Shown: positions 3,688 to 37,633, counted from the stretch's first letter. The stretch is 64,000 nucleotides of DNA from an uncultured Methanosarcinales archaeon (GCA_964537195.1 CAZHYZ010000002.1:296-64295), one strand, 5' to 3'. Numbers and translations are program-made. The notes: a model not told the origin generated them from the sequence alone.

Positions 3688-3689
3688 TT

Positions 3690-5192: not shown

Positions 5193-5199
5193 TTTTTCA

Positions 5200-6640: not shown

Positions 6641-6641
6641 T

Positions 6642-7016: not shown

Positions 7017-7024
7017 CTTTTCAC

Positions 7025-7943: not shown

Positions 7944-8245
7944 TTTACATTTATTGTCTCGGACGGGAATCCAAGTTTTGTTAATTCTTTTTTTACTTGA
8001 TATTTATGATCTCCCTGAAGTTCGACTTTACCTTCTTTGGCTGTTCCTCCACAAGCAAGCTTATTTTTCAGCTTTTTTGCCAAGTCTCTCAGGTCTATTT
8101 GTTTAGTGTCAATGCCACTTATAACTGTGTTCTTTTTTCCGAATTTTTTTCGGATCGTGTAAATTCTTATCTCTTGACTCTCCTTTGCGATGTTCTCACA
8201 AACGCAAAGGTCTTTTGGTAAACCACAAGTGTTACATATAGTCAT
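7940..8245 (-). CDS. sui1: Translation initiation factor aIF1/SUI1
   Basis: CGLPKDLCVC, LKNKLACGGTAK, VELQGDH. Confidence 0.96.
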   Translation of the reverse strand: MTICNTCGLPKDLCVCENIAKESQEIRIYTIRKKFGKKNTVISGIDTKQIDLRDLAKKLKNKLACGGTAKEGKVELQGDHKYQVKKELTKLGFPSETINVK

Positions 8246-8427
8246 TTTTTCTTCAGTTCTGTTAATAACCTCGCAATTGTTTTTTTTGTATTTTTTAGTT
8301 TCCCAGGACTTTTCAAAGTGGTCCCTGTTGCAACCTGGGTATTCAATTTAATAAGTTCCTTTCTTAACTCTATTAATTGTGTTCCCTTTTCCTCTTTTGA
8401 CATTTTTTTAATATCTTTATTTTTCAT
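8242..8427 (-). CDS. rpl29: 50S ribosomal protein uL29
   Basis: LIELRKEL...PGKLKNTKKTIARLLT. Confidence 0.93.
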   Translation of the reverse strand: MKNKDIKKMSKEEKGTQLIELRKELIKLNTQVATGTTLKSPGKLKNTKKTIARLLTELKKK

Positions 8428-9169
8428 CTTCTTTCTTTTCTGTTTTCTTTGGCTTTTTCTGTCTTGGTTTGTTCTCTTCTTTTTTTACTTCTTTTTCTGT
8501 TGTCTTATCTTTAATTTCTTCCTCAACTTTCTTTGACTCTTCATCAGAAACTTCTTCAACTGTTGATTTATCTGGCTCTAAAAAGGTAACATCATCTGGC
8601 AATCTGACATCCGGTGGCATAATGCTGACTTTTACTCCAGCAATTCCTGATTTTAGTTTGGCTCTTGCATATGCAATATCAACTTGAGTTAAGGCAACAT
8701 GACCGCATTTTTTAATATATCCTTGATAAAATCTCCATGTTCTGGCTCTTGAACTTGGTATCTTCCCAGAAATTAATATTTCTACTCCTTTTGCTCCTGC
8801 ATTTAAAACATCTGCCATTGTCTTGTGTCCTATGCCTTTAAATCTCATTGTTCCGAATCTTTCAAGGCCAGATGCTATTCTTTCTGCTACCACAGAGGCG
8901 ACAAGATTCACATTTTCAACTTCATTAATCTCTATTTGCGGATTCTCCAAATCAAATTCTTTCTTTAGTTGGTTCGTTAATTTCTTTATGTTGCTTCCAC
9001 CGCTCCCAATGACTAACCCCGGCCTAGCGGCATAAATAATTATTTTTTCACCAAGAGGTGTTCTTTGAATCTTTATATGACTGAGTCCTGCTCCGCCTAA
9101 TTGACTCCTTATAAATTCTTGTATTTCAAATTCTTTCTTATTTCTTGATACAAAGTCTCTCTCAATCAT
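8417..9169 (-). CDS. rps3: 30S ribosomal protein uS3 with a charged C-terminal tail
   Basis: KH domain RPGLVIGSGG, GAKGVEILISGK, GIAGVKVSIMPP. Confidence 0.97.
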   Translation of the reverse strand: MIERDFVSRNKKEFEIQEFIRSQLGGAGLSHIKIQRTPLGEKIIIYAARPGLVIGSGGSNIKKLTNQLKKEFDLENPQIEINEVENVNLVASVVAERIASGLERFGTMRFKGIGHKTMADVLNAGAKGVEILISGKIPSSRARTWRFYQGYIKKCGHVALTQVDIAYARAKLKSGIAGVKVSIMPPDVRLPDDVTFLEPDKSTVEEVSDEESKKVEEEIKDKTTEKEVKKEENKPRQKKPKKTEKKEDEK

Positions 9170-9633
9170 TTTTTCTTCCCCGTTGACTCTTTCTTTTCTT
9201 TTTTCATCTCAGCAACAATAATCTCAACATGAGATCTTTTGGCTTTTCTTCTCCTTTGCCTCCCATAACGCCAAGGCCTTGAAGCTCTATTAGCTGCTAT
9301 GTGTTCTATAACCAAATTAGATGTTGATAGCCCTTTGTTCTGGGCGTTTGTTTCTACACTTTTTAATATCCTTAAAATTGCTTCTGCAGCATTAATGGGA
9401 TATTTTCCTGCCGCCATTCCTTTTTTATGTGCTGTATCTCTATAAAATCTTCTCATTCTGATGGGTTCTTCCTTTTTAATAACCTTACTAAGCAACTGTT
9501 TAGCTTTTTTTAGAGGCATTCCTCTAAGTTGGTTACAAATTTCTATTGCATGTTTTGTAGATATTCCTATGTCTCTGCCATGTGCTTTAGCAATATTCTC
9601 TTTTTCACCTTGATAGGAATATTTAATTTTCAT
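9166..9633 (-). CDS. rpl22: 50S ribosomal protein uL22
   Basis: ISTKHAIEIC..LRGM, GKYPINAA, NAQNKGL, HVEIIV. Confidence 0.97.
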   Translation of the reverse strand: MKIKYSYQGEKENIAKAHGRDIGISTKHAIEICNQLRGMPLKKAKQLLSKVIKKEEPIRMRRFYRDTAHKKGMAAGKYPINAAEAILRILKSVETNAQNKGLSTSNLVIEHIAANRASRPWRYGRQRRRKAKRSHVEIIVAEMKKEKKESTGKKK

Positions 9634-13986: not shown

Positions 13987-14643
13987 CTATTCTAGAAGCT
14001 TTACTTTTCCTGGAGACAACTCAAAAATTTCTCCTTCCTCAACTAAATTTTTTATTATTTGATCACAATTATCTATGTTCACATGCTTAACAATGTCTTC
14101 TATGTCTGCACCATCTCCTTTGTCCAAAATAGCAACAACATTAAGGATTTTCTGATAGGGTCCTGTTTCTATTGTTTCCTCTTCGGGAGAGTCTTCAACT
14201 GGCAAAACAATTGAATTTGTCCTTTTCTGTAATTTTATTTCTAAGTTTCTTACTTCTAGCCACTTTTTGTTTTCTATTTCTTTTATTATCTCTGGGACAA
14301 CGTATTTTGTGGCATTCCATTCTCTTGGTCTACCTATGACATTAACTACTCTTCCAACAACAAATTTTTTTAGTCTTGGATCTTCTTCAAAAAACCTTAT
14401 CATTATGTTTCCTGTTCCATCATCAATCAAAAAATTATTTTCTTCCTCTGTTATCCCAACAATTACTCCAATCAAATTGACACGAGCAATTTCTCCATAT
14501 TTTGTCAATATTCCGCTCGGTTCCCATCCAGGTCTCTTAATATAAGTTCCTGTTAGAATGTCATTTATCAGAACTTTTTTGGCAACTTTTCTCTTGTTGT
14601 TGGCCAATTCAGATTTTTGAGATGTATCCTTTTCTTGGCTCAT
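13987..14643 (-). CDS. OB-fold protein with C-terminal winged helix (RPA2/RPA32-like)
   Basis: RVNLIGVIV, IDDGTGNI, VNVIGRPRE OB fold; C-terminal LVEEGEIFELSPGK winged helix; overlaps the end of mcm. Confidence 0.75.
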   Translation of the reverse strand: MSQEKDTSQKSELANNKRKVAKKVLINDILTGTYIKRPGWEPSGILTKYGEIARVNLIGVIVGITEEENNFLIDDGTGNIMIRFFEEDPRLKKFVVGRVVNVIGRPREWNATKYVVPEIIKEIENKKWLEVRNLEIKLQKRTNSIVLPVEDSPEEETIETGPYQKILNVVAILDKGDGADIEDIVKHVNIDNCDQIIKNLVEEGEIFELSPGKVKLLE

Positions 14644-16630
14644 ATATGTCTCCAGACCTTTTTAGTTTTTCAACTACTTCAAGTACTTTATCTTCGGATA
14701 ACCCTTTTGACTCAGCTTCTATAACAATATCTTCAACAGGAATTGTCTTTCCAACTTTTCCTTCTATCTCATTAATTATTTCTCTGACAACAACTATGTT
14801 TCCTCTTTCTGAAGCAGTCACACCAGAACTAATTCTATCAATGTCAAATTTCCCTGTTTCAGGATCTAGACCAATCTTTGTCAAACAATAATGTACTAGT
14901 TCAATTGCTCTTTCTGCGTCTTTTCTTGAAACTTTATCAGCTAATCTTGCTTTTGCAGATGCCTCTGCTAGCCTTACCAATGCTTCAAGTTGTCTTGCAG
15001 AGATTGGAATTGTTTTTATGACGCCGTCCTCGGTTGACCCAGAGGTTCTCATTCTAACATAATAATCTTTTATGTTCTCTATTGCTGCCTCCGACAAGAC
15101 AGGCTTTATGTTTTGTCTAGCATATGCAAAATATTTTTTCAACATCTCAGACTCTATTTCTGTAGTAATTTCTGTTGATTCTTTATGAAGACTTAATATG
15201 AAAGATGCCATTTTTTCATCTTTTGATTCATCTGGCAAATCTTTAATAGGAAAAATAAGATCAAATCTGTTGATAAGTGTACTTGGCAAATCAATCTGTC
15301 TAGCTATGACTTCATACGGATCAAACCTACCAAACTTTGGGTTTGCTGCTGCCAACACTGTTGTTTCTGCTCGCAAGGTTGCTTGAATATTTGCTTTTGA
15401 TATTGTAACTGTCTGTTGTTCTAGTGCTTCGTGCATTGCACTTCTATCTTCTTTAGTCATCTTATCAAGCTCATCAATACAACAAATACCTCTGTTTGTT
15501 AAAACTAGTGCCCCTGCTTCTAATGCATATCCACGAATGAATTCATCTTTTACGACTGTTGCTGTTAATCCTGCTCCTGATGCTCCTTTACCAGAAATGT
15601 ATCTGGCTTTTGGCACCACTTGTGAGATTCTTTTTAACAATTGGCTTTTTCCTGCTCCTGGATCACCAATTAATAAAACATGTATGTCTCCCCTCGTTGC
15701 AGAACCTTCTTTTCTTTTTTTTCTAACACCGCCAAGTGCCTGTAAAATAAGTGCTTCCTTAATTTTATCATGACCAAAGATGGTTGGTGCGATAGAATTA
15801 ATTAATTTGTCATACACTTTTGGATCATTTGCAATTTCTGAGATTTCTTCCTCCTCTTCCTTAGAAATTTCAAGTTGCATAAAATCTTCTTCAATCGGTT
15901 CTATGTAATTGGATTCAATCATTAAATCAAATCTCGTTAATCTGCCCCCGTCTCTAGCTGGAATTGGGACTTCCTTCAGAACTCCGTGAACTTTAATCTT
16001 GCTACCCGGATTAGTCTTTCTTTCTGACATTGGAGAGACTAAATCTGCTTTAAGGAAGACATCTAGTCTCTTTGGTTGCTCACCTCCCTGTAAATCTTCT
16101 GGTGCTTCTTCCAGAACAATCTTCTGAGCATCAACAAGCTCCTTGCTCAATAACCTGAATTTTCCTCTTCTTCCACACCCACATCTATCTGGTTCTTTGA
16201 ATTTAGAATCTAGTTGCAAGATTGTTATCACATTCCCACAACTAGGACATTCAAAACGAGCACTAGTAACTTGGGGTCTAACGTCTGATTTTTGTCTGAC
16301 AAGTCCTGTTACATAAATAAATTTATTTATGTGTTCGCTTCTTATGTATTTAATTGGTACTTCCATATCCTCTGGAAGATTTTTTATTCTTACTCTAAAG
16401 GTCTTAATATCTCCTTCAGTCTCAAAATGTTCTACAGCCAACTCTCCCGCTTTGATTACCTCGTCTGGATTCTCAAGAAGCTCATCTGCCAAGGCAGGAC
16501 TATGCATAGAAAGTTTTCTGAAATCTATAACAAGAAATTTCTCTCCTTTTCTGACTTTTTCAGCTATTTCTGTCTTGTGGTTCTTCTCCAGATATTCCTG
16601 GAATTTTTTAATTGTTTCTGTTGGATCCAT
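14609..16630 (-). CDS. mcm: Replicative helicase MCM
   Basis: CPSC...CGC Zn finger, GDPGAGKS, IDELDKM, AAANPKFGRF, ISARQLEAL; no intein. Confidence 0.98.
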   Translation of the reverse strand: MDPTETIKKFQEYLEKNHKTEIAEKVRKGEKFLVIDFRKLSMHSPALADELLENPDEVIKAGELAVEHFETEGDIKTFRVRIKNLPEDMEVPIKYIRSEHINKFIYVTGLVRQKSDVRPQVTSARFECPSCGNVITILQLDSKFKEPDRCGCGRRGKFRLLSKELVDAQKIVLEEAPEDLQGGEQPKRLDVFLKADLVSPMSERKTNPGSKIKVHGVLKEVPIPARDGGRLTRFDLMIESNYIEPIEEDFMQLEISKEEEEEISEIANDPKVYDKLINSIAPTIFGHDKIKEALILQALGGVRKKRKEGSATRGDIHVLLIGDPGAGKSQLLKRISQVVPKARYISGKGASGAGLTATVVKDEFIRGYALEAGALVLTNRGICCIDELDKMTKEDRSAMHEALEQQTVTISKANIQATLRAETTVLAAANPKFGRFDPYEVIARQIDLPSTLINRFDLIFPIKDLPDESKDEKMASFILSLHKESTEITTEIESEMLKKYFAYARQNIKPVLSEAAIENIKDYYVRMRTSGSTEDGVIKTIPISARQLEALVRLAEASAKARLADKVSRKDAERAIELVHYCLTKIGLDPETGKFDIDRISSGVTASERGNIVVVREIINEIEGKVGKTIPVEDIVIEAESKGLSEDKVLEVVEKLKRSGDIYEPRKGYISKI

Positions 16631-16677
16631 TTTAAGAAATTCCTATTTCAGTAAAAAAAGAATAAAAAATTAATTTA

Positions 16678-17220
16678 TTAATTTACTTTTTTTAGATTAA
16701 TAATTAATTTATCTAGTGCTTCATGCACTTCATCTTCACTCTTTGTTCCTGTACACACTATTTTTCCATTGCTGAACAACAGAAAGGTTGCCTTTGCTTC
16801 ATCCAATTTATATACTAATCCTGGAAATTGCTCTGGTTCATATTCTGTATTTTGCAATTTCATAGCTAAAACATTTAGATTAAGATCCATACCCACGCTA
16901 CCAGAAGCAACTATGTTTTGTATGCTAATTTTTGGTTTAATCTTGATTTCGATACCTATTTTCTTTAGGCTTTCTATTATCTTAACAATTGATTCTTCCA
17001 CCTTGTCCATACTTCTTGCACCGGTACACACGACCTTTCCAGAGCTAAATATTAATGCAGAGGTTTTTGGATCTCTTATTCTTATAACTAATCCTGGAAA
17101 TTGTTCTGGATTATATTCTGTGTTACTTAATGTTGCTGCCATTTTCTCTAATGGAATGTCATGTTCTAGACTTGTAGAAACTACAATATTTACAACTTGT
17201 ATATTTTTATTATCTGACAT
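16678..17220 (-). CDS. tbp: TATA-box binding protein
   Basis: Two repeats, YNPEQFPGLV...LIFSSGKVVCTGA and YEPEQFPGLV...LLFSNGKIVCTGT; GGGGGTG Shine-Dalgarno upstream. Confidence 0.98.
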   Translation of the reverse strand: MSDNKNIQVVNIVVSTSLEHDIPLEKMAATLSNTEYNPEQFPGLVIRIRDPKTSALIFSSGKVVCTGARSMDKVEESIVKIIESLKKIGIEIKIKPKISIQNIVASGSVGMDLNLNVLAMKLQNTEYEPEQFPGLVYKLDEAKATFLLFSNGKIVCTGTKSEDEVHEALDKLIINLKKVN

Positions 17221-17283
17221 AAAATTACACCCCCGTGCAGATTTTTCATTTATAAAGAAACCAGGTATTATTTATAAATACTA

Positions 17284-18075
17284 TCATTTTGTAAAACGCC
17301 AAATTTCATCTATCATCTCATATGTTGTATAACCATATCCTTTCTGTTTAAACATATATTCTCCAAGCTTTCCATTGATTTGAGCTGCTTTCCTTGCGGA
17401 TTCAAAAAGATTGTCAGAAAGAGCAACGTAGCCCGCACACAGCCCCGCAAGGACATCTCCAGTACCACCCATCGTCATACTGTCATGGCCCGTTTTGTTG
17501 ATATGCCTTCTGTGTTTAGTGAAAATTGTGTCATACGTTCCTTTCAGCAAAATAACGTTTTCATCCATCTTCTTTTGTATGTTCTTAATATTAATCTCCA
17601 TGTCCAATTCATCATAGGGAATTCTTTTAATTGTGTTCTGGAATAAAATTTCAAATTCCTTTTCATGTGGTGTCAAAATAGAATTAGATACTGTCTCTAA
17701 ATTAATCACTTTTATGGCATCCGCATCTAGAACAAAGGGTTTTTTTATTTCTCTCAGCAACTTTAAAACAAAGTCTTTATTTCTTCCGAGACCGTTGCCA
17801 AGAACAACTACATCAGAGAGTTCACTGAGTGAAATAATTTCTTTTGTATGTGTCAAACTCAATTCATCGCCCAACAATTTCTTTGTTATAATGTCTGGAC
17901 TATATGTATTAATTGTCCACGCTACTTTTTCAGGAGCACAGACAGTAACTAAATCCACCCCACACCTTAGTGCTGCAAGAGCTGCAAATGCAGGAGCTCC
18001 AACATAATCTTTGCTGCCTCCAACAACCAACACTTTACCATTCTGTCCTTTTTTACTTCCTCTGTGTATTCTCAT
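17284..18075 (-). CDS. nnrD: ADP-dependent NAD(P)H-hydrate dehydratase (stand-alone YjeF-C)
   Basis: KGQNGKVLVVGGSKDYVGAP, GNGLG, LDADA, LTPHEKEF, GGTGDVLAG. Confidence 0.93.
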   Translation of the reverse strand: MRIHRGSKKGQNGKVLVVGGSKDYVGAPAFAALAALRCGVDLVTVCAPEKVAWTINTYSPDIITKKLLGDELSLTHTKEIISLSELSDVVVLGNGLGRNKDFVLKLLREIKKPFVLDADAIKVINLETVSNSILTPHEKEFEILFQNTIKRIPYDELDMEINIKNIQKKMDENVILLKGTYDTIFTKHRRHINKTGHDSMTMGGTGDVLAGLCAGYVALSDNLFESARKAAQINGKLGEYMFKQKGYGYTTYEMIDEIWRFTK

Positions 18076-27432: not shown

Positions 27433-27795
27433 GTGACTATGAAGACCCCTCAAGAAATACAAGTTTGGCATATTCTTCCTGCATTAAGAAAACACATTGC
27501 ACTTGGACTGAAAGAAAAAAAACTGAAACAAAAAGATATAGCTTCCCTGCTCGGGCTAACCGAGTCTGCTATCAGTCAATATCTTAAAAAAAAGCGAGGA
27601 AATGAAATAATTTTTCCAAATGAAATAAAGAAAGAGATATCTTTGTCTGTGGAAAAGATTTCAGAAAACAAAACAACTGTTCACAAAGAAATACAAAAAC
27701 TAATTAGAAAAATGGATCGCTCTGGGTTTTTGTGCAATATTTGTCACTGTTATCTGGGAACAGATATTTCTTGTGATGTATGTCATGAAAGGTGA
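27433..27795 (+). CDS. XRE-type HTH transcriptional regulator with a C-terminal Cys/His cluster
   Basis: QKDIASLLGLTESAISQYL HTH; CNICHC...CDVCH tail; first gene of the suf operon. Confidence 0.8.
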   Translation: MTMKTPQEIQVWHILPALRKHIALGLKEKKLKQKDIASLLGLTESAISQYLKKKRGNEIIFPNEIKKEISLSVEKISENKTTVHKEIQKLIRKMDRSGFLCNICHCYLGTDISCDVCHER

Positions 27796-27800
27796 GAGAT

Positions 27801-28544
27801 ATGCTTGAAATAGAAGATTTACATATTAATGTTGATGGGAAAGAAATTATTAAAGGATTAGACTTAAAAATTAAAAAAGGAGAAATCCATGCTCTAATGG
27901 GGCCAAATGGTTCTGGAAAAAGTACTTTGGCTTTTGGTCTTATGGGACACCCGAAATATGAAATAACTAAAGGTAATGTTGTGGTTGATAAAACCAATGT
28001 GCTCGATTTAGATGTGAGCCAAAGAGCAAAAGCAGGGTTGTTTTTGTCTTTCCAATATCCAAGTGAGATATCTGGTGTTTCTCTGGCAAACTTTCTAAGA
28101 ACTGCCTACAATCAAGTCAAAAGTAAGGATAAAGATGACAAGATTGGTGTTATGGATTTTATGAAACTGTTGTATGAGAAAATGGATCTTCTCAAGATGG
28201 ACAAAGAATTTGCCAAAAGACATGTAAATGTAGGTTTTTCGGGAGGAGAAAAGAAAAGAACAGAAATTTTACAAATGGCTGTTCTAGAACCCAAATTTGC
28301 AATCTTAGATGAAACTGATTCTGGATTAGACATTGATGCACTAAAAGTTGTTGCAGATGGTGTACAAAAATTGGTTGGACCAACGATGGGAGTACTTATT
28401 ATTACCCATTATCAAAGAATTCTTCACCACATAAAACCTGACAAAGTACACGTTCTTGTTGATGGTAAAATTGTAAAAACCGGCGGACGAAAACTTGCAG
28501 AAGAAATTGAAGAAAGAGGGTATGAAGATTTGCAAAAAAGGTGA
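27801..28544 (+). CDS. sufC: Fe-S cluster assembly ATPase SufC (start set at 27801 after AGGTGA)
   Basis: MGPNGSGKST, FLSFQYPSEI, GFSGGEKKR, ILDETDSGLDID. Confidence 0.97.
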   Translation: MLEIEDLHINVDGKEIIKGLDLKIKKGEIHALMGPNGSGKSTLAFGLMGHPKYEITKGNVVVDKTNVLDLDVSQRAKAGLFLSFQYPSEISGVSLANFLRTAYNQVKSKDKDDKIGVMDFMKLLYEKMDLLKMDKEFAKRHVNVGFSGGEKKRTEILQMAVLEPKFAILDETDSGLDIDALKVVADGVQKLVGPTMGVLIITHYQRILHHIKPDKVHVLVDGKIVKTGGRKLAEEIEERGYEDLQKR

Positions 28545-28550
28545 ATTGGT

Positions 28551-29966
28551 GTGAGTTCAAAAGAAAGTGAAGAGATAAAAAAATTTCTTGGAAATGAATA
28601 TAAGTATGGTTTTAGAGATCCTGAAAAATTTTCTTTCAAGACTAAGAAAGGACTTAATGAAAAAATAGTCAGACAAATTTCAGAAATAAAAAAGGAACCT
28701 AAGTGGATGACTGAGATGAGACTAAAAGGATATAAACATTTCAAAGAAAGGCCACTTCCTTTGTGGGGTGCAGATCTCAGACAAATTGATTTTCAAGACA
28801 TCTATTATTATGGAAAACCAGAAGGTGAACAAAGTAGAAGCTGGGATGATGTTCCCGAATATATAAAAAAGACATTTGATAGACTTGGAATTCCTGAGGC
28901 CGAAAAAAAATTTCTTTCGGGTGTGGGTGCGCAATATGAATCAGAAGTTGTATATCACAATCTGAAAAAAGATCTTGAAAAGAAAGGTGTTATCTTCTTA
29001 GATATGGACGGTGGATTAAGAGAACATCCCAAACTTGTGAAAAGGTGGTTTGGAAAAATCATACCCTATAATGATAATAAACTGGCAGCATTAAATACTG
29101 CTGTCTGGTCCGGAGGTTCTTTTATTTATGTTCCTCCCGGAGTTAAAGTGGATTTGCCTTTGCAGGCATATTTTAGGATAAATGCAAAAAACATGGGGCA
29201 ATTTGAAAGAACCTTAATTATTGCAGACAAAGGAGCACATGTTCATTATGTAGAGGGCTGTACTGCCCCCGTATATGCTTCTGATTCTCTACATAGTGCA
29301 GTAGTGGAACTTATTGCTATGGAAGGCTCTACCATAAGATATACAACAATCCAGAATTGGTCCAATAATGTGTTTAATCTAGTAACTAAGAGGGCAATTG
29401 CTCATAAAAATTCTCGCGTTGAATGGATTGACGGAAATCTTGGAAGCAAAATAACAATGAAATATCCTGCTATTATTTTATTAGAAGAGGGTGCACACGG
29501 AGAGGTAATTTCTGTTGCATTTGCAGGAAAAGACCAACATCAAGATGCTGGTGCAAAAATAATTCACTTGGCACCAAAGACAACTTCACAAATAATATCT
29601 AAATCAATATCTAAGGATGGGGGAAGGGCATCCTATAGAGGCTTGTTGAAAGTAGAAAAGGGTTGTAAAGATGTTAAGTCAAGTGTTGTTTGTGATGCCT
29701 TGATCCTAGATGAAAAGTCTGCTTCTGATACTTTCCCTTATATGGAAATAAAGGAAAAAGATGTTTCTATAGGTCATGAGGCGTCTGTTGGAAGGGTTTC
29801 TGAAGAACAGTTATTTTATCTTATGTCTAGGGGGTTTGATGAAGAACAGGCGCTAGGAATGATTGTAAGGGGATTCATGGATGAATTTGTTAGAGAACTT
29901 CCTATGGAATATGCCATAGAACTAAATCGGCTCATTGAATTGAATATGGAGGGCTCTGTAGGATAA
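28551..29966 (+). CDS. sufB: Fe-S cluster assembly protein SufB
   Basis: [42 protein letters not shown]. Confidence 0.97.
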
Positions 29967-29968
29967 AC

Positions 29969-31180
29969 ATGACAAGTATATATGATAAATCTATATTAAA
30001 AAAGATTAAACAAAGTACTGTTGAACCTAAAACAATGTATGAAAAAAGGCAACTTGGCTTTCAATTATTTAAAAAATTGCCCCTTCCTTCTCAAAAATCA
30101 GAGGGCTGGAAATACACGGACATAAAAGACCTCAATTTAAATGAATTTCTGCCAGGAAAACAAAAAGTAGAATTTATTGGGCAAAACAAGGAATTAGAAA
30201 AGAAAGGTGTTATTTTTACAGACATAAGAACCGCATTAGAAAAACATTTTGATATTATTAAAGAATGTCTGCCAATGTCTCTGGTATCATACAAAGAAGA
30301 TAAATTCACTGCTATGCACGCAGCTTTTTGGAACGAAGGTGTTTTTATTTATTTGCCTAAAAACATAAAATTGGAGTTGCCTTTGAGAAACAGATTTTAT
30401 ATTAGCAGAAAAGGTGGTTTTTTTAATCATGCTTTAATTATCTTAGAACAAAACTCTTCGTTGAAATATATTGAAGAACACGTTTCTGAAGAAGGAGATT
30501 ATGTCGCATTAAGAAGCGATGTTGTTGAGATTTATGCTAAAGAAAATTCTTCTCTGGATTTTCACAACCTACAAAATTGGGTGGACAATGTTATTAACTT
30601 TTCAAACTGGTCAGCAAATTTAGAAAGAAACAGCAAAGTCAATTGGTTTTTTGGACAATTTGGAGGAAAGATAAGTAGAGTAAAAATTGACTCTTTTTTC
30701 AATGGGCCAGGATCTGAATCACATAATTGTGGGGTTTTTTATGGGAACAAAAACCAGCATTTTGATATTACTACAAATGCGCATCACATTGAACCACATA
30801 CTACCGGAAACATAATTGTTAAAGGTGTTCTAGACAACCATTCTACTTCTGTGTATAGAGGGAAAATAAAAATAGATAAAACTGCCCAAGACACAAACTC
30901 TTATTTATCTGATCACTCATTAATTTTAAGTGAACATGCTGTCTCAAATTCTGTACCTACTTTAGAGATTGATGCTAATGAAGTATCAGCTAGTCATAGT
31001 GCTACACTTGGTAGACCAGATGAAGAAGAAATATTCTATCTAATGTCTCGCGGTTTATCTAGAAAAGAAGCAGAAAAACTTATAATTTTGGGGTTCTTTA
31101 GTGAGATAACTGAGAAAATAGAGATTGATGATTTAAGACTGGGATTTGAAAAAAGTCTTCAAAAAAAGTATTTTAGATAA
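29969..31180 (+). CDS. sufD: Fe-S cluster assembly protein SufD
   Basis: EGWKYTD, GKIKIDKTAQDT, PTLEIDANEVSASHSATLG, YLMSRG. Confidence 0.94.
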   Translation: MTSIYDKSILKKIKQSTVEPKTMYEKRQLGFQLFKKLPLPSQKSEGWKYTDIKDLNLNEFLPGKQKVEFIGQNKELEKKGVIFTDIRTALEKHFDIIKECLPMSLVSYKEDKFTAMHAAFWNEGVFIYLPKNIKLELPLRNRFYISRKGGFFNHALIILEQNSSLKYIEEHVSEEGDYVALRSDVVEIYAKENSSLDFHNLQNWVDNVINFSNWSANLERNSKVNWFFGQFGGKISRVKIDSFFNGPGSESHNCGVFYGNKNQHFDITTNAHHIEPHTTGNIIVKGVLDNHSTSVYRGKIKIDKTAQDTNSYLSDHSLILSEHAVSNSVPTLEIDANEVSASHSATLGRPDEEEIFYLMSRGLSRKEAEKLIILGFFSEITEKIEIDDLRLGFEKSLQKKYFR

Positions 31181-31181
31181 A

Positions 31182-32411
31182 ATGTATGATATAAAAAAAA
31201 TTAGGAAAGATTTTCCAATACTTGGTAGGAAAATCAGAAGTAAAAAACTGATATATCTAGATAACGCAGCAACAACACAAAAACCAAAACAAGTTCTTGA
31301 AAGCATAAAAGAGTACTATGAAAAAAATAATGCCAACATACATAGAGGAGTGCATTTGTTATCTGAAGAAGCTACTGAAATGTATAATGAAGCACATGGA
31401 AAGGTTGGATTATTTGTCAATTCTGAGTTTCCTAATGAAGAGATTATTTTTTTAAGAAACGCAACAGAAGGAATAAATCTCGTAATGTATGGTTGGGCTT
31501 TTCAAAATTTAAAAAGTGGAGACGAAGTCGTTTCGACCATTATGGAACACCACAGTAATTTTGTTCCATGGCAACAATTAGAGAAAAGAGGAATAAATGT
31601 CAAATACGTTGATATAAATGATGGGGGCGTCGTTGATATTGAAGACCTAAAAAGAAAAATAACTGAAAAAACAAAACTTGTTAGTTGTGTCCATGTCTCA
31701 AATGTTCTTGGAACCATAAATCCTGTTGGAGAAATAGCAAAAATTGCACACGATGCAGGAGCACTTTTTCTTTTAGATGCTGCCCAATCCGTTCCTCACA
31801 TGTGTGTTGATGTGAGAAAAATTGATTGTGATTTCATGGTGTTTTCTGGTCACAAAATGTTGGCTCCGACTGGAATTGGGGCATTATATGGAAAAAAGCA
31901 TCTCCTTGAAAAAATGTCTCCTTTTCTTTTTGGTGGAGATATGATAAAAGAAGTTACAACTAAAAAAAGTACGTGGAATGACTTGCCATGGAAATTTGAA
32001 GCAGGAACCCCAAATATTTCGGGAGGAATTGCCTTTGGTGCTGCAGTTGATTACTTAAACGGGCTTGGTATGGAAAATGTGGAAAAACATGTTTCTTCTC
32101 TCACAGAATATGCGGTAAACATGTTAAATGAGATAGAGGGAATAAAAATATATGGGCCAACCAATCCAGAATTAAGAAAAGGAGTTATTAGTTTTGATGT
32201 TCGAGGCATTCATCCACATGATGTTGCAAGTATCTTAGATACAGAGTATGGTGTTGCTGTTCGAAGTGGTTATCACTGTGCACAACCCCTGCATGAAAGG
32301 TTGAAAGCAAAAACAAGTACTCGAGCCAGCTTCTATATTTACAATACAAAAGAAGAAATTGATGTTTTAATAAAAGGACTAAAAAAAGTGAAGGGAGTTT
32401 TTAGAAAATGA
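31182..32411 (+). CDS. sufS: Cysteine desulfurase SufS (start set at 31182)
   Basis: YLDNAATTQKP, EHHSN, LDAAQSVPH, SGHKM, RSGYHCAQP. Confidence 0.97.
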   Translation: MYDIKKIRKDFPILGRKIRSKKLIYLDNAATTQKPKQVLESIKEYYEKNNANIHRGVHLLSEEATEMYNEAHGKVGLFVNSEFPNEEIIFLRNATEGINLVMYGWAFQNLKSGDEVVSTIMEHHSNFVPWQQLEKRGINVKYVDINDGGVVDIEDLKRKITEKTKLVSCVHVSNVLGTINPVGEIAKIAHDAGALFLLDAAQSVPHMCVDVRKIDCDFMVFSGHKMLAPTGIGALYGKKHLLEKMSPFLFGGDMIKEVTTKKSTWNDLPWKFEAGTPNISGGIAFGAAVDYLNGLGMENVEKHVSSLTEYAVNMLNEIEGIKIYGPTNPELRKGVISFDVRGIHPHDVASILDTEYGVAVRSGYHCAQPLHERLKAKTSTRASFYIYNTKEEIDVLIKGLKKVKGVFRK

Positions 32412-32803
32412 GTATTGATATGTACCAAGAAAACATTTTGGATCATTATGAAAATCCAAGGAATTTTGGACATTTAAAGAAGTATGATATAAATATAGGT
32501 GATTCTAATCCTGTTTGTGGAGACAAATTTAATTTTGAGATGAATTTTGAAAAAAATAAAATAAAAGATGTGAAGTTCTCGGGGCATGGTTGTGCTATTT
32601 CTACTTCGTCTGCTTCCATGTTAAGTGAAAAAATTAAAGGTCTTCCTTTGAAAGAAATAAAGAAGATGGAGAAGAAAGACATAATAGACATGATGGGTAT
32701 CCCTATAAGTCATGTCAGAATAAAATGTGCGATGCTTCCTTTGAAAATTATAAAATTAGGCATTTATGATTACTTAAACAAAAAAACTGAAAAACAGAGT
32801 TAG
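32408..32803 (+). CDS. sufU: SUF system sulfur-transfer protein SufU
   Basis: ILDHYENPRN, NPVCGD, GCAISTSSAS, RIKCAML. Confidence 0.95.
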   Translation: MSIDMYQENILDHYENPRNFGHLKKYDINIGDSNPVCGDKFNFEMNFEKNKIKDVKFSGHGCAISTSSASMLSEKIKGLPLKEIKKMEKKDIIDMMGIPISHVRIKCAMLPLKIIKLGIYDYLNKKTEKQS

Positions 32804-32817: not shown

Positions 32818-33207
32818 ATGAAAATATATGTCTTGGGAAATCCTTTGGTAGAAATTGATTCTCTTCCCATTAAATTACTGCTCAAACTAGAGGATATGTT
32901 TCCAAAAATACAATTCATAGAGTTAGATCCTAGCGAAGATTTCGACACTTCTGAAAAAACATTAAATCTCTTGGACACTGCACTTGGTCTAAAAAAAGTT
33001 CAGTTGATAAAGGACATAGATAAAATTGTTGTTGAAAGGGCTTGTTCACTACATGATTTTGACCTTGGCCACAATCTGAAAATAATGAAAAAGTTTGGCC
33101 TTATAGAAGAAGTAAATATAATTGGTGTTCCTCCAAAAATGAATGAAATGGTCGCAATAAAACAAATAAAAGAAATTATAACCAATTTATTTTCAAGAAG
33201 TGAGTAG
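32818..33207 (+). CDS. Hydrogenase maturation protease-like protein
   Basis: LGNPL...D, LLDTA, SLHDFDL and IIGVP match the HycI/HyaD pattern; adjacent to the large subunit. Confidence 0.72.
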   Translation: MKIYVLGNPLVEIDSLPIKLLLKLEDMFPKIQFIELDPSEDFDTSEKTLNLLDTALGLKKVQLIKDIDKIVVERACSLHDFDLGHNLKIMKKFGLIEEVNIIGVPPKMNEMVAIKQIKEIITNLFSRSE

Positions 33208-34465
33208 CACAACTCATGCAGGGATCATACGCTCTTATTATTTTTTCAATTTCTAGTGCCATTTTTTGTTTTTCCATATCAAGATTCTTTTCAACAAATA
33301 ATTTTATGTCTTCCTCAATATTAATCTGGTTTTGTTGTGTGGGTACGATAACGTCTACGTGAGTTACTGTTCCCTTTTCATCTAAGTCTACTTTATAATA
33401 TAATGTTCCTCTGGGTGCTTCGATTACTCCTATGCCTGATGATTTCTTTGGTTTTAGTATGTTTAGTTTCTCTTTCTCGAATCTGGTGTTTTCCAAGAGT
33501 TCTATAGAATGGTCTATTGCATGAAGTGTCTCTATTGCCTGAGCTAAATTGTTATCAAAAACATTCTTGCTTGGAAACCATTTCAAAAAGTCTGCTGCGT
33601 CTCTTTTTGTGTTTTCGTGGAGTGCTTCTTTGTTTAGGTTAATTCTTGACAACGAACCGACAAAATAATTTCCCCCTTCAAACATGTATCCTGTTGCAGT
33701 AGAGTAAGGAATTACTGTTCTTTCGAGGTGCTGTATGTAATCTGGTTCTTCTATTGTTGTGTTGTTGGATGTTTTTATCTTTCCGTCCATAAAACTAAAA
33801 TCCTTGGAAATTTGTGCCACAAACGTTGTGTCTCTTTGCAATGTTTGATCCCATTCTTGAAATATCTTCATTAATCTGATTACTTTGGGCCTTACTTCTT
33901 TTAGTTCCTTAATGGATTTTTTGATTGAATCTGGTTCTGGAAATTTAGAAAATCCACCGACCATTGGATATGGTGCATGGACGGCTTTCCCTGCAACTGC
34001 TATGCTTAAGTTGTTTCCTGCAGATTTAACTGCAAAAGCATCATGAACCAAATCATGTTCTTCTGGATTCTTTTGGTCAAATTCTAACACAGAATCTTTG
34101 TTGAAAACATCTGGCAAAGTAAAGAAATACAAGTGGAGTGCATGGTCTCTAATCATCATACCATATGTTGTTAATTTTCTTAATATCTTGATTTGTTCAC
34201 TTGGTTCGTGGCCGAGTGCATTCTCAATGGCTTTAATACAACAAAGTAAATGTGCTATACTGCAGGTTCCACAAATACGCGACATCCGAGATGGCGCGGC
34301 AATAAATGGTTTTCCTTCTATTGCTGTAGTATAAAATCGTTTGTTTTCTGTTATCTTAAATTTAATGTCTTCTACTTTGCCATCCCTTACTTTAAGATCT
34401 AGTTCTCCATGTCCTTCTATTTTACTCAATTTATCAATACTTAAATCTATGTCTACGTTATGCAT
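33176..34465 (-). CDS. [NiFe]-hydrogenase large subunit (group 3-like)
   Basis: KIEGH, RICGTCSIAH, HALHLY, EAPRGTL, VPTQQN, DPCMSCATH plus a 7-aa cleavable tail. Confidence 0.92.
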   Translation of the reverse strand: MHNVDIDLSIDKLSKIEGHGELDLKVRDGKVEDIKFKITENKRFYTTAIEGKPFIAAPSRMSRICGTCSIAHLLCCIKAIENALGHEPSEQIKILRKLTTYGMMIRDHALHLYFFTLPDVFNKDSVLEFDQKNPEEHDLVHDAFAVKSAGNNLSIAVAGKAVHAPYPMVGGFSKFPEPDSIKKSIKELKEVRPKVIRLMKIFQEWDQTLQRDTTFVAQISKDFSFMDGKIKTSNNTTIEEPDYIQHLERTVIPYSTATGYMFEGGNYFVGSLSRINLNKEALHENTKRDAADFLKWFPSKNVFDNNLAQAIETLHAIDHSIELLENTRFEKEKLNILKPKKSSGIGVIEAPRGTLYYKVDLDEKGTVTHVDVIVPTQQNQINIEEDIKLFVEKNLDMEKQKMALEIEKIIRAYDPCMSCATHFLKINWL

Positions 34466-34946
34466 TTACAACACCAAATTCTTTTAGATATTTAGTTAGT
34501 ACTTCAATGAAAACCTCTTCCTTCATTGGACAGCCATCTACTTCATCATCAACATCGACAACTTCTTTTACTGTCTTAACATTTTCTGCAAGACCCCATC
34601 TTTCTATTATTGGGATTATGCTCTTTTTCTTATCCTCCGAAAATTCGTTTCTTTGTGCAGAGGGAGTACCCTTAACTGCACACGACCCTATTGCCACTAA
34701 TTTTTTCGAATTTTTTCTAATCTCCTGCAACTCTTTGGAGTCTTTATCAGATGCAATAGCGCCCTCTACAAAAGCAACATCAATGTCTGAAAGTTCATTT
34801 TTTGATTGGAGCACGTTTGCATGCCTAAACTCTAATAAAGGAAGCCATTCCTTGTAATGATCATTAAGAAGTTCCATAAAAACAATTGTAGAATCTTCAC
34901 AGCATGAAAATGAGAACCAACCTATTTTTAGTTTTTTGTCTGCCAT
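34458..34946 (-). CDS. [NiFe]-hydrogenase small subunit, proximal-cluster domain only
   Basis: SCCEDS, FVEGA, AIGSCA, DGCP (NuoB/20-kDa family); 162 aa. Confidence 0.87.
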   Translation of the reverse strand: MADKKLKIGWFSFSCCEDSTIVFMELLNDHYKEWLPLLEFRHANVLQSKNELSDIDVAFVEGAIASDKDSKELQEIRKNSKKLVAIGSCAVKGTPSAQRNEFSEDKKKSIIPIIERWGLAENVKTVKEVVDVDDEVDGCPMKEEVFIEVLTKYLKEFGVVNA

Positions 34947-35018
34947 AATTTAATTCAATTTTGAAAGGTATTTAAAATTTGTGTAAAAAATATAAACATA
35001 CTCACTATTTAGAAAAAC

Positions 35019-35231
35019 ATGTGCCTACAAATCCCTGGAAAGGTTGTCTCTGTTGAAAAAAACAAGGCCGTGATTGATTATGACTTAGAGAAAAGAGAAG
35101 CTGTTATTGCTGATGTTAAGTGTGATGTTGGAGACTGGGTTCTTGTTGTTGGACAATTTATAGTAGAGAAAGTCCCTTCAGATGTTGGAAGAGAAAGCCT
35201 TAATCAGTGGAAAAAAATCCGGCTTGATTAA
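35019..35231 (+). CDS. hypC: HypC/HybG/HupF hydrogenase chaperone
   Basis: MCLQIPGKVV N-terminus, VGDWVLV. Confidence 0.9.
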   Translation: MCLQIPGKVVSVEKNKAVIDYDLEKREAVIADVKCDVGDWVLVVGQFIVEKVPSDVGRESLNQWKKIRLD

Positions 35232-35937
35232 GTGCATCTATGTTTGCTTGTGTATAGGTGTTTATATTTGAGATTTCTCTTTTTGTAAGTATTCTACAAG
35301 CATGATCCCAATGTATGCCAATTTCGTATCCTTTTTTTGGAGATAAAAAAGTGTTCATGATTTCTTTTTTCTCTTTTTCTGCAAAGATAAGTTTTCCTTT
35401 TCTAATTTGAAGGGGGTTTTTTTCTATAATTAGTTTGTTTTCCTTTATTTCTAATACTTGGCCTATTGAAACTATGCAGTTATTCATCGTAACTATGTTT
35501 GTCGGGACAGAACCACTCGTCATGCCTACACCAACAAAGAGTACATTAAACGTGTGGTGTGGATTCATTTTCTCTGGAAGCTTTTTTTTAAGTCTCTGGG
35601 CATACATTTCAGGAAGGCCCCTTTTTACTAGTGAGTCTATTATGTCTAAATGGTCTTTTTTAGAAAAATTATCTAGAAGGTTGTTTCCAAGCCAATAGCT
35701 TTCGATAACCTCGTAATCAAAGGGGGTTTTTTTGTTCTTTTCTGCTATTTTCTTTAGATAGATATATAGGCCTTCATATTTCTCAAAATGGTTAATTACT
35801 TTATCCTTATTATAGTCTTTGTCATTAAGAAGTTTCCATAATTCTTTATATGATCCATTGGGTCCACAATAATTCAGCTTGTTTGTAATATAAGAAAAAC
35901 TAGCTAAAAGCTCTAGTGCTTTGTCTTGGACAACCAT
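35200..35937 (-). CDS. DUF6390-like protein
   Basis: NKLNYCGP, EGLYIYL, VIESYWLGN, PHHTFNV, NNCIV, IHWDHAC; family recalled from memory. Confidence 0.7.
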   Translation of the reverse strand: MVVQDKALELLASFSYITNKLNYCGPNGSYKELWKLLNDKDYNKDKVINHFEKYEGLYIYLKKIAEKNKKTPFDYEVIESYWLGNNLLDNFSKKDHLDIIDSLVKRGLPEMYAQRLKKKLPEKMNPHHTFNVLFVGVGMTSGSVPTNIVTMNNCIVSIGQVLEIKENKLIIEKNPLQIRKGKLIFAEKEKKEIMNTFLSPKKGYEIGIHWDHACRILTKREISNINTYTQANIDALNQAGFFSTD

Positions 35938-36827
35938 AGTTCTGAAACCTTTTTGAGATTAAACTGTGATGTAGAATTCATGAAAACAACAATCCCTGCA
36001 ATTATTAGTACCATGCTTGTTGCATTAGTTAGTGTTAGTGGTGTTCCTGTCGTAAATTTCAATAAAGTTGTAATAGGCGATCCCAGTAATAAGATAGCAG
36101 AAGCCAAAGACACAGGTACTTTTTTGAGGCCATTATACCAAGTGAAAACATACAAGAAAAGCATTCCTGATGTAATAAATATCCATGTTAATTGTGGTGT
36201 CGTAATGGTCTGTATAATTACAAATTTTTCTGTTGCTGCAAGATAGATTAATATGAATAATGAACCAAAAAACATTCTGCCAAAGGCCACCATATTTCCA
36301 GAAAGCTCTATTAATGTGTGTTTGGAAATTATATTTTCTGCTGCCCACAAAATTGTAGCAACCAAAATCATCAAATCTCCATAATTAAAACTCCAAGAAG
36401 GTCTCAATAGAAGATAGTTTCCTGTTATCAACAACATAGACGCGGCAATAACTTTTTTGTCAAGTTTTTCCTTCAGAAAAATTATTGCAAACATGGTCAC
36501 AAATATGAAAAGTGATTTATGAATTAATGCTGCACTTGCCCCAGTTGTCAATTGGAGTCCTCTGAAAAACAAAAGAAAGGGAACAGAACCCCCTACAAGA
36601 CCAATTAAGACAATTTTAAACCAGTCTTCTTTCTTTAATTGTGAAAATTCTTTAAGGTTGTTTAATCCAAAAATTAGTGAGAACAAGAAAATTGCAACAA
36701 CGAAATTTTTTGAAAAGGTGAATACACCCGAGTCTATACCTGTGACTCCATATTGATTAAGAAAAATGGAAACTCCACTAATAACTGCGGTAGACAAAAC
36801 AAGTAATAAATGTTTTTTATTTTTCAT
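35913..36827 (-). CDS. EamA/DMT-family transporter
   Basis: About 10 TM helices in two EamA repeats; IFLKEKL, YGDLMILVATILWA. Confidence 0.9.
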   Translation of the reverse strand: MKNKKHLLLVLSTAVISGVSIFLNQYGVTGIDSGVFTFSKNFVVAIFLFSLIFGLNNLKEFSQLKKEDWFKIVLIGLVGGSVPFLLFFRGLQLTTGASAALIHKSLFIFVTMFAIIFLKEKLDKKVIAASMLLITGNYLLLRPSWSFNYGDLMILVATILWAAENIISKHTLIELSGNMVAFGRMFFGSLFILIYLAATEKFVIIQTITTPQLTWIFITSGMLFLYVFTWYNGLKKVPVSLASAILLLGSPITTLLKFTTGTPLTLTNATSMVLIIAGIVVFMNSTSQFNLKKVSELWLSKTKH

Positions 36828-36834
36828 AAATTAC

Positions 36835-36846
36835 TACAAATTTGTA
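36835..36846. promoter_or_regulatory. Perfect 12-bp palindrome in the divergent promoter between the DMT and FNR genes
   Basis: TACAAATTTGTA, 7 nt upstream of the DMT start codon. Confidence 0.3.
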
Positions 36847-36943
36847 AATTATAAAAGTTTTACTATATTGTGTAAGTGTAGATATTTTTATAAATCATAT
36901 AGACAATTATACTGAACATATCCTGAAAAGAGGTGTTTTTAAC

Positions 36944-37633
36944 ATGCACAAATCAAAAGTAATTAAACTAATTAAAGAAACTCACGATACTTGGACAATA
37001 CAGTTTGAAAGGCCAGAAAATTTTGATTATAAGCCCGGACAGTATTGTATCTTTGAGAAAAAAATGGGTGACGAATTAATTAGGAGATCTTATTCGTTGT
37101 CTTCTTCTCCAACTGAGGAATTCCTTCAGATAACTGTTAAACACATACCCAATGGAAAAATGTCTACCTACCTTACTCAATGCTCTTCTGGAGAGGTGTT
37201 GAAATACAATGGCCCTATTGGAAAATTTGTGTTTGATGAAACTTATAATAATGTGGTTTTTATTGCGGGAGGCTCTGGCATAAGTCCTTTTAGAAGCATG
37301 CTTAAGTACGTTTTAGATAAAAAATTACAAACAAAAGTAACTGTGATTTATGGTTCAAGATCTCCAAAAGACATTATTTTAAAAGAGGAGTTAGAAGAAC
37401 ATAACAAAAGAGAGAATGTTAACCTATATTTGACTGTGGATTATCCGGACGAAGAATGGAAGTTTCATTCTGGATTTATTGATATAGATTTCATAAAAGA
37501 AGCAACAAAGAATGACTTGTTTGATAAGGATTATTTTCTAATAGGGCCACCACCCATGGTAACTAATGTAAAAAACGGTCTCATGAAAGCAAATGTCCCA
37601 GAACCCCAGATTCATGTTGATGCATGGGGTTAG
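36944..37633 (+). CDS. FAD/NAD(P)-binding oxidoreductase (ferredoxin-NADP reductase-like, no Fe-S domain)
   Basis: YKPGQY, RRSYSLSS, GKMSTYL, FIAGGSGISPF, GPPPMV; GAGGTG Shine-Dalgarno. Confidence 0.9.
   Translation: MHKSKVIKLIKETHDTWTIQFERPENFDYKPGQYCIFEKKMGDELIRRSYSLSSSPTEEFLQITVKHIPNGKMSTYLTQCSSGEVLKYNGPIGKFVFDETYNNVVFIAGGSGISPFRSMLKYVLDKKLQTKVTVIYGSRSPKDIILKEELEEHNKRENVNLYLTVDYPDEEWKFHSGFIDIDFIKEATKNDLFDKDYFLIGPPPMVTNVKNGLMKANVPEPQIHVDAWG

Follow-up and report, generated by a model that had tools for sequence, protein, structure and literature searches.

How can a [NiFe]-hydrogenase obtain its metal centre in a cell that lacks the canonical Hyp maturation proteins? This question is raised by a seven-gene cluster in a 64,000-nucleotide (nt) stretch of DNA, here called the window, which is deposited under an uncultured Methanosarcinales archaeon (GCA_964537195.1, CAZHYZ010000002.1:296-64295). 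The window corresponds to C2:296-64295 of a 46-contig draft genome of 1.24 Mb, estimated to be 97% complete, and its host is a DPANN archaeon of the Woesearchaeales type with a small genome. The cluster encodes a large subunit with all active-site motifs and, next to it, an EamA-family permease, a DUF6390 protein and a HypC-family chaperone. Among related genomes, the gene for EamA and that for DUF6390, or for a shorter relative termed H160, are nearly exclusive with those for HypD and HypE, and comparative genomics suggests that this cassette probably substitutes for HypD, HypE and HypF. Listing of the open reading frames (ORFs) and family scans located the seven genes at the following window positions (lengths in amino acids [aa]).

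32818..33207, plus strand: predicted maturation endopeptidase of the HybD/HycI fold, 129 aa (AlphaFold 2 model and Foldseek; TIGR00140, E 0.005)
33176..34465, minus strand: [NiFe]-hydrogenase large subunit, 429 aa, group-3b-related, matching the 'hyd2' type (PF00374, E 2e-29)
34458..34946, minus strand: truncated small subunit, 162 aa, with the proximal [4Fe-4S] site only (PF01058, E 2e-19)
35019..35231, plus strand: HypC-family chaperone, 70 aa (PF01455, E 7e-13)
35200..35937, minus strand: DUF6390 protein, 245 aa, with a helical N-domain (1-154) and a predicted HypC-fold C-domain (157-238) (PF19927, E 4e-35)
35913..36827, minus strand: EamA/DMT-family permease, 304 aa (PF00892, E 5e-29)
36944..37633, plus strand: FNR-family flavoprotein, 229 aa, with FAD and NAD(P) domains (PF00970, FAD_binding_6; PF00175, NAD_binding_1)

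Hydrogenases without Hyp proteins

A related large subunit was sought in 401 genomes of the phylum, each at least 90% complete, and was found to be encoded in 82 of them. Ten of the 82 proteins (that of the window's genome included) are at least 49% identical to the window large subunit; the remaining ones are 30-39% identical and mostly belong to four-subunit enzymes. The window protein scored 103.6 bits against PF00374 (cut-off, 25.8) and contains the motifs EGH (17-19), RICGTC (63-68), APRG (350-353), VIVPT (372-376) and DPCMSCATH (414-422), with a 7-aa tail (FLKINWL) after H422. A preliminary description of the window had regarded the subunit as catalytically intact; indeed, all motifs that it named are present, and E17, R63, C65, C68, R352, C416, C419 and H422 are kept in 81 of the 82 large subunits, whether or not hyp genes accompany them. 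Since this retention concerns the metal-ligating Cys together with Glu, Arg and His, we conclude that the hyp-less enzymes are not decaying.

Profile searches of the whole 46-contig genome gave no match to HypD (PF01924) or HypE (TIGR02124). Genome-wide, the HypF model (TIGR00143) gave only partial matches below the cut-off to Sua5- and Kae1-like proteins, the HypA model (PF01155) no more than a zinc-ribbon ORF of 60 aa that fails the family cut-off, and the HypB model (TIGR00073) only an 18.8-bit P-loop match in a 313-aa ORF (cut-off, 121 bits). The latter two ORFs lie approximately 3 kb apart on contig C23. The shorter one was rejected as HypA, because it is a bare ribbon under the cut-off and because a hidden Markov model (HMM) made from the phylum's own HypA proteins found none in the source genome. 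The longer one was likewise rejected as HypB; it resembles an SRP/FtsY-type GTPase, as judged by eye only. Relatives of HydG and HydE were not found in the source genome either. The preliminary description had listed the protease and HypC as the only known maturases and hypABDEF as absent from the window. This can now be extended to the entire genome, in which we also searched for, and did not find, a full hypABDEF set together with the beta and gamma subunits of a group 3b enzyme.

The Hyp searches were then considered across the phylum, in 80 genomes that encode the hydrogenase; completeness is 91% or higher in each, and some consist of a single contig. HypD was detected in 15 of these genomes, and HypE was above its cut-off in exactly the same 15. 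Both proteins are missing from the other 65, among them the single-contig genomes G009 and G219. Hyp-less large subunits with a strictly conserved active site thus occur in approximately 65 genomes, which represent more than 50 genera. We conclude that hyp-less [NiFe]-hydrogenases are the rule in this phylum. As to HypA and HypB, a HypA-like protein of approximately 106 aa (NF001976, E 3e-10) recurs beside the large subunit and was found near it in 43 of 66 HypD-negative loci. GTPase-type HypB is encoded in only 7 of the 80 genomes, and in two of these (G397 and G015) it adjoins H160 or DUF6390.

The EamA-DUF6390/H160 cassette and its alternatives

To describe the gene neighborhoods, approximately 9 kb on each side of the large-subunit gene was extracted and the ORFs were clustered (81 loci). 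Near the large subunit, an EamA orthologue is present in 40 loci, DUF6390 in 21 and H160 in 27, and the usual gene order in hyp-less genomes is protease, EamA, DUF6390/H160, HypC and HypA. Within 9 kb of the large subunit, DUF6390/H160 was found in 47 of 65 HypD-negative genomes, compared to 1 of 15 HypD-positive genomes (Fisher's test, p = 3.5e-6); the corresponding numbers for the EamA orthologue are 40 of 65 and 0 of 15 (p = 1.2e-5). DUF6390/H160 stands alongside EamA in 38 of 40 loci, and an HMM recount on stop-to-stop ORFs agreed with the cassette counts. The EamA orthologue is well separated from the other EamA proteins of the genome (417 bits versus approximately 30 bits). A genome-wide Pfam search detected DUF6390 in 23 of 65 HypD-negative and in 1 of 15 HypD-positive genomes. 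Furthermore, the genes found around HypD in the 15 positive genomes include canonical HypC, HypA, HypE and HypF, with no EamA orthologue and no H160; the sole DUF6390 in these neighborhoods is a 177-aa form in G039, where the hyp genes adjoin the hydrogenase. The DUF6390-like, DMT and FNR-like genes that had been noticed in the window were all recovered by their family profiles, and the proposed check, whether such accessory genes track hyp-less hydrogenases, came out positive for EamA and DUF6390/H160 in the 80 genomes. We conclude that these two form a conserved, hydrogenase-linked pair that is nearly exclusive with HypD and HypE and does not consist of passenger genes.

A natural swap of the accessory genes was seen among the closest relatives. 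In a maximum-likelihood tree of large subunits, the window's genome forms a clade with G036 and G092 (100% support). The large subunit of G036 is 78-79% identical to that of the window, and this genome has an EamA-DUF6390-HypC cassette and no hyp genes. In G092, the large subunit is 75% identical and the 165-aa small subunit carries the CCEDS motif of the window protein, and the genome has a HypF-HypC-HypD-HypE cluster with all expected Pfam domains and no cassette. That the same enzyme occurs with either the cassette or HypFCDE speaks for an ordinary NiFe(CN)2CO center in its active site. Over the whole tree, at least 9 changes of the HypD state and at least 16 changes of the cassette state are required.

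The chaperone of the cassette is also altered. HypC residues are numbered here according to what we take to be the E. coli sequence, with Cys2 and His51 as reference positions. The window HypC retains Cys2, and its conserved His51 is replaced by Val. At this column, His was present in 12 of 12 HypC proteins from HypD-positive genomes and in 0 of 35 from cassette genomes, where Gln (20), Ser (7), Asn (4) and other residues (4) are found instead. The column is likewise non-His in two HypC::HydE fusions, which are described below.

DUF6390 itself appears to be a relative of HypC. Using hhalign, residues 154-229 were aligned onto HypC (probability 94.9%, E 5e-8), with C154 at the position of HypC Cys2 and H209 at that of the conserved His51. 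In line with this, the AlphaFold 2 model (predicted local distance difference test [pLDDT] score, 96.1; predicted template modeling [TM] score, 0.92) consists of a helical part (1-154), a beta-barrel (157-216) and a terminal helix, and its best PDB match in Foldseek is HypC of Thermococcus kodakarensis (2z1c; TM score 0.71, normalized to the target length). Both proteins would thus share the OB-barrel, the C-terminal helix and the Cys2/His51 positions of the HypC/HybG/HupF family; in contrast to the N-terminal Cys of that family, the DUF6390 Cys is at position 154, behind a helical domain of 150 residues. This helical domain had no PDB match in Foldseek. Among 39 homologues, L21, Y60, Y81, W82, G84, N85, H128, F130, C154, H209 and T229 are invariant, and N19, C24 and G25 are among the residues kept in at least 90%. 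Alignment and model together suggest that DUF6390 combines a HypC-fold domain bearing Cys and His with a new helical domain that has Cys and His residues of its own. In effect, the Cys-His pair seems to have been transferred from HypC to DUF6390/H160.

The DUF6390 family comprises 1,418 representatives at 50% identity (E ≤ 1e-3). Three fusions, one each, were found among P0192, P0268 and P0289: EamA::DUF6390 (P0192, 563 aa), an XRE-type helix-turn-helix (HTH) domain fused to DUF6390, and PadR::DUF6390. These fusions support the view that DUF6390 is coupled directly to the permease and binds a ligand, and it seems to double as a ligand-sensing module of transcription factors. H160 (153-180 aa) corresponds to a shorter DUF6390 (hhalign probability 98%, E 2e-13), the C-terminal part of which is HypC-like. 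In one locus (L072, G200:C14, 15809-16657), a cytidylyltransferase/adenylyltransferase domain is fused to H160, which hints at nucleotide-dependent chemistry in the module.

The EamA gene overlaps the start of the DUF6390 gene by 25 nt, and the two are therefore probably translationally coupled. EamA orthologues conserve N24, K40, N41, H103, K104, E120, E164, K169, R184, Y226 and Y231 and no Cys. This is a weak hint that the substrate could be a charged organic or complexed species and not a soft metal ion.

The protease gene is convergent with the large-subunit gene, and their 3' ends overlap by 32 nt. At the sequence level, the evidence for its identity is weak: the match to TIGR00140 (HupD family) has an E value of 0.005, and a search of its family profile against PDB sequences gave no match to a hydrogenase protease. 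At the level of the predicted fold, however, the AlphaFold model (pLDDT 88.5) had hydrogenase maturation endopeptidases as all of its seven best PDB matches in Foldseek, with T. kodakarensis HybD (5ija, E 7.6e-5), 1cfz and 2e85 at the top. Thus, judged by its modeled fold, the 129-aa protein belongs to the HybD/HycI family. G7, D14, D53, H79 and D80 are invariant across 30 orthologues, and an orthologue adjoins the large subunit in 61 of 81 loci.

A third accessory set was found in sister genomes. In G105 (L030, C8: 11486-14150) and G332 (L094, C7: 552-3261), a HypC::HydE fusion and HydG adjoin the large subunit and the protease; in G297 (L078, C2: 31-2410), the same pair is located approximately 7 kb upstream of the large subunit. 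The fusion was thus beside HydG in all three inspected loci. A further locus, G371:C2:141872-143263, was listed with these observations. The large subunit of G105 is 51% identical to that of the window. The fusion protein scored 267 bits against TIGR03956 (cut-off, 254.6) and 48.7 bits against TIGR00074, and HydG scored 562 bits against TIGR03955 and has the CX2CX22C motif. Six of the 80 genomes have HydG above the cut-off; HypD is missing from each of these six and the cassette from five. We rejected the possibility that HydG and HydE serve an [FeFe]-hydrogenase in these organisms, because an H-cluster domain was found in none of the six genomes. The only genome with both DUF6390 and HydG is G099, in which the HydG gene (C9:5870-7129) contains an in-frame TGA; it may be a pseudogene left from a switch of the accessory set. 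HydG is known to make CO and CN. It alternates exclusively with HypDE and with the cassette, which suggests that what the three sets supply is the same, and the gene neighborhoods suggest that in these sister genomes a [NiFe] enzyme is served by [FeFe]-type radical-SAM maturases. Like the cassette, this pair is an alternative to HypDEF; in contrast to it, the cassette of the window includes no radical-SAM enzyme. In a tally of 81 genomes, 50 have the cassette, 14 have Hyp, 5 have HydG, 2 are mixed and 10 have none of these sets.

The cassette is not confined to this phylum. Together with a large subunit and a short small subunit, the latter fused to a Pyr_redox_2 domain, it occurs in an Aenigmarchaeota genome. 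The same cassette is present in a contig (L104) of WWE3, a lineage of the Candidate Phyla Radiation (CPR), beside genes for ferredoxin, POR and a fusion of ADP-forming acetyl-CoA synthetase with an FNR-type protein. The WWE3 large and small subunits are 47% and 52% identical to those of the window, respectively, and the small subunits of both have CCEDS. In the WWE3 large subunit (8115-9413), the L2 motif reads DPCMSCATN, with Asn in place of the His before the cleavage site; a protease-like gene is still adjacent. The synthetase fusion (14509-17370), which contains FAD_binding_6 and NAD_binding_1, is located downstream of POR and ferredoxin. Two further distant contigs carry the cassette, one of them directly downstream of a Suf operon. 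A 757-kb contig has the small subunit, large subunit and protease only.

Supply of the metal center

The best explanation of the observed gene content, folds, conservation and co-occurrence is, in our estimate with a probability of slightly below 60%, that the metal center is supplied by the cassette of EamA, DUF6390, His-less HypC and the HybD-type protease, and not by the canonical Hyp pathway. The main reason for assigning the cassette to the iron/CN/CO branch is that it coexists with HypA and HypB but excludes the ligand-synthesis enzymes. Any detail of the permease substrate and of the ligand chemistry is speculative. The permease could import a precursor, either an iron species already carrying diatomic ligands or a metabolite that serves as the source of CN and CO. 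DUF6390 would capture or assemble the iron unit on C154 and H209, aided by C24 and H128, and the unit would be handed over via Cys2 of HypC to the apo large subunit. Nickel would then enter, in the window's genome without HypA or HypB. Finally, the protease would trim the 7-residue tail, the small subunit would dock, and ferredoxin or the neighboring FNR-like flavoprotein would accept electrons from the single cluster. More tentatively, and at somewhat less than even odds, we propose that EamA-DUF6390/H160 and the His-less HypC constitute an undescribed, HypD/E/F-independent route to Fe-CN/CO that is widespread in DPANN archaea and CPR bacteria, may import and capture a precursor, and is one of three interchangeable solutions, the others being HypCDEF and HypC::HydE with HydG.

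Several observations weigh against a supply of the center by the cassette. In ten of the 81 genomes with a hydrogenase, none of the three accessory sets was seen, which means that something else, or nothing, can also suffice. The cassette includes no known producer of CN or CO, and the conserved residues of EamA, with no Cys among them, say little about its substrate. The Cys of DUF6390 is internal (residue 154) and that of HypC is N-terminal; the free N-terminal amine of HypC is thought to matter. Genome G039 (L042/L109, C3) has HypA, HypC, HypD, HypE and HypF together with a short DUF6390 and without EamA, next to a four-subunit hydrogenase; it may represent an intermediate state. As to the statistics, the Fisher tests count genomes as independent and ignore phylogeny, and six independent pairs differing in HypD show the opposite state of the cassette in 3-5 cases and the same state in 0; this direction is consistent with the exclusion, but so small a number of pairs gives the sign test little power (p approximately 0.125). 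Furthermore, EamA and H160 were scored within 9 kb of the large subunit or HypD and not genome-wide.

Could the cassette handle nickel instead? EamA would then import Ni2+, DUF6390 would be a Cys2His2 nickel chaperone or sensor replacing HypA, HypB and a transporter, and Fe(CN)2CO would be made by unrelated enzymes. Such a role would suit the window's genome with its lack of HypA and HypB, the general rarity of GTPase-type HypB (7 of 80 genomes), the four conserved Cys/His residues of DUF6390 (C24, H128, C154 and H209), and the HTH and PadR fusions, which resemble metal- or ligand-sensing regulators. We consider it unlikely, however, because most HypD-less loci (43 of 66) have HypA next to the cassette and HypB adjoins H160 or DUF6390 in G397 and G015, so that the cassette is no alternative to the nickel branch; what it excludes are HypD/HypE and HydG. 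Moreover, a single His and no Cys are conserved among the EamA orthologues, and the synthesis of CN and CO would still have to be explained. We know of no nickel importer in the DMT family. The HypB adjacency in the two genomes was also the reason for rejecting DUF6390 as a simple HypB substitute. Since the window's sub-clade is without HypA too, the cassette may have a nickel role in addition to its proposed role in the iron branch.

Less likely still is that ligands are not synthesized in the cell at all. An episymbiont could take the finished cofactor or Hyp functions from its host, or the enzyme could be mostly apo and inactive, with the cassette serving as a chaperone or in housekeeping. 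The small DPANN-like genome, in which no known CN or CO maker was found, and the 10 of 81 hydrogenase-bearing genomes without a recognizable accessory set are consistent with this, and most archaeal genomes with [FeFe]-hydrogenases are likewise without HydEFG (PMC11216029). The strict conservation of the active site in approximately 65 hyp-less genomes of more than 50 genera nevertheless argues against decay, and a cassette that is conserved, translationally coupled and horizontally mobile points to a function that is under selection and cell-autonomous. Delivery from the host by way of the permease would amount to a version of our preferred explanation, the supply by the cassette. A different metal site in the large subunit, for example one without diatomic ligands, would make HypDEF unnecessary and would agree with the lack of ligand-synthesis genes in the source genome, the loss of His51 in HypC and the unusual small subunit. 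It is very improbable, given that an enzyme of this type, 75% identical and with the same small subunit, occurs with a full HypFCDE set in G092, that conservation extends to all four Cys and to Arg, Glu and His of the second sphere, and that the HydG-bearing sister loci imply a need for CO and CN. That the hyp genes escaped assembly or binning is scarcely credible: the source genome is indeed a draft of 46 contigs, but its completeness is estimated at 97%, the absence recurs in 65 of 80 genomes of at least 91% completeness (single-contig G009 and G219 included), HypD and HypE are always both present or both absent, and the distribution of the cassette and of the His-less HypC follows the absence. 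Of the three options offered in the preliminary description, the alternative maturation route is thus favored and a host-derived cofactor is less probable, while a different metallocofactor is disfavored by the pairing of the same enzyme with HypFCDE in G092.

The minimal enzyme, its relatives and its significance

The locus is best explained as encoding a real, selectively maintained, minimal cytoplasmic [NiFe]-hydrogenase, which can be seen as an archaeal counterpart of the CPR 'hyd2' clade. The top NCBIfam models for the large subunit are the group 3b alpha proteins ShyA/HydA, with 240 bits, far below the equivalog cut-off of 700. The closest solved large subunits are T. kodakarensis Hyh alpha (5yxy, 1e-63) and Pyrococcus furiosus SHI alpha, and the alignment is full-length.

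The small-subunit gene overlaps the start of the large-subunit gene by 8 nt, and its product aligns only to the N-terminal half of group 3b delta models. It has four Cys residues (C15, C16, C89 and C139), and reads SCCEDS where relatives have TGCxGC; the second canonical Cys is replaced by Ser and a tandem Cys is added. In relatives with beta and gamma subunits, small subunits have approximately 264 aa and 12-18 Cys residues; the domain for the medial and distal clusters is missing from the window protein. In the close clade, sizes range from 151 to 171 aa. In the CCEDS sub-clade, the proximal cluster may, judging from the motif, have Asp or Glu as its fourth ligand. One member of this sub-clade (G070, L028) reads CSEDS, with a single Cys left at the tandem position.

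A phylum-specific HMM for the beta subunit gave nothing significant in the whole genome (best E 6e-4, 18 bits). The preliminary description, which had reported beta and gamma subunits as absent, was thus correct for beta. For gamma it needs revision, since the FNR-like protein clusters in BLAST comparisons with the gamma subunits of relatives and ends before their C-terminal CGIGVCCHC...C [2Fe-2S] motif; by its sequence, it is most readily seen as a truncated gamma-subunit relative without the Fe-S tail. In G036, G092 and G186, an orthologue is encoded close to the hydrogenase, and the window protein is a candidate redox partner of the enzyme. Fusions of the small subunit to a Pyr_redox_2 flavoprotein were observed in the Aenigmarchaeota locus (L012, 8506-10014) and in L097 (G270; 502 aa). 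They indicate a direct electron transfer from a single cluster to a flavin, which supports the FNR-like neighbor in the window as redox partner.

Upstream of the cluster, a SufCBDSU operon (window 27792-32803) ends 15 nt before the first hydrogenase-associated gene. A Suf-hydrogenase adjacency was also seen in L024 (G036) and in a distant cassette-bearing contig, L121 (Suf at 2674-7543). The operon could be a supply line of iron or Fe-S clusters for the hydrogenase.

With its missing beta subunit, the missing tail of the gamma-like protein and the truncated small subunit, the locus fails three defining features of the group 3b heterotetramer. The group 3b sulfhydrogenases (P. furiosus SHI/SHII, HydBGDA/ShyBCDA; T. 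kodakarensis Hyh; PDB entries 9nez, 9e15 and 5yxy, E 1e-61 to 1e-63) are similar in being cytoplasmic and in their L1 and L2 motifs; unlike the window enzyme, they have beta, gamma with a [2Fe-2S] tail, and a three-cluster delta subunit of approximately 250-260 aa. Thermococcales use the full Hyp set. The canonical HypABCDEF system, as in Escherichia coli and T. kodakarensis, has in common with the window a HypC with Cys2, a nickel-dependent endopeptidase of the HybD fold and a short tail after DPCxxCxxH. In contrast, it comprises HypA, B, D, E and F and a HypC with His51, whereas the window has EamA and DUF6390 instead.

The minimal two-subunit enzyme is of a known but uncharacterized, hyd2-like kind. 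For the CPR 'hyd2' clade, a small subunit of 164 aa on average, no adjacent beta or gamma, a HypC-like neighbor and an uncertain function were described (Jaffe 2020, BMC Biol 18:69, PMC7304191), with no mention of maturation, absence of Hyp proteins, DUF6390 or EamA. The likeness to the window extends to the truncated small subunit, the lack of beta and gamma beside the catalytic genes, the HypC-like neighbor, a Pyr_redox_2/FNR-type flavoprotein that is sometimes near, and a patchy distribution suggesting horizontal transfer; the hosts differ, being bacteria there and a DPANN archaeon here. By these features and by its 47% identity to the WWE3 large subunit, the window enzyme appears to match the hyd2 type.

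No mention of DUF6390 was found in the searchable literature, and searches on hydrogenase maturation in DPANN and CPR and on HydG with HypC gave nothing on hyp-less [NiFe] enzymes. In a survey of Clostridium, only HypA and HypB were reported missing (PMC9431212). The genome-wide lack of Hyp proteins and the cassette of EamA, DUF6390 and His-less HypC therefore appear to be undescribed there. Two recent reviews (PMC12130793, PMC12134894) present the six Hyp proteins as necessary for all [NiFe]-hydrogenases. This contrasts with our finding that approximately four in five hydrogenase-bearing genomes of the phylum are without HypD and HypE, yet have a conserved active site, a protease and a mobile cassette.

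If Fe(CN)2CO is supplied by the cassette, or by HydG with HypC::HydE, this would represent a new branch of metallocofactor biosynthesis or a form of cofactor scavenging. The sister genera, in which one enzyme is accompanied by the cassette in one genus and by HypFCDE in the other, provide a ready comparison. DUF6390, whose family exceeds 1,400 clusters, would gain a function, and a far smaller gene set could serve the heterologous production of [NiFe]-hydrogenases. Moreover, such a supply would explain how ultra-small symbionts can afford H2 metabolism.

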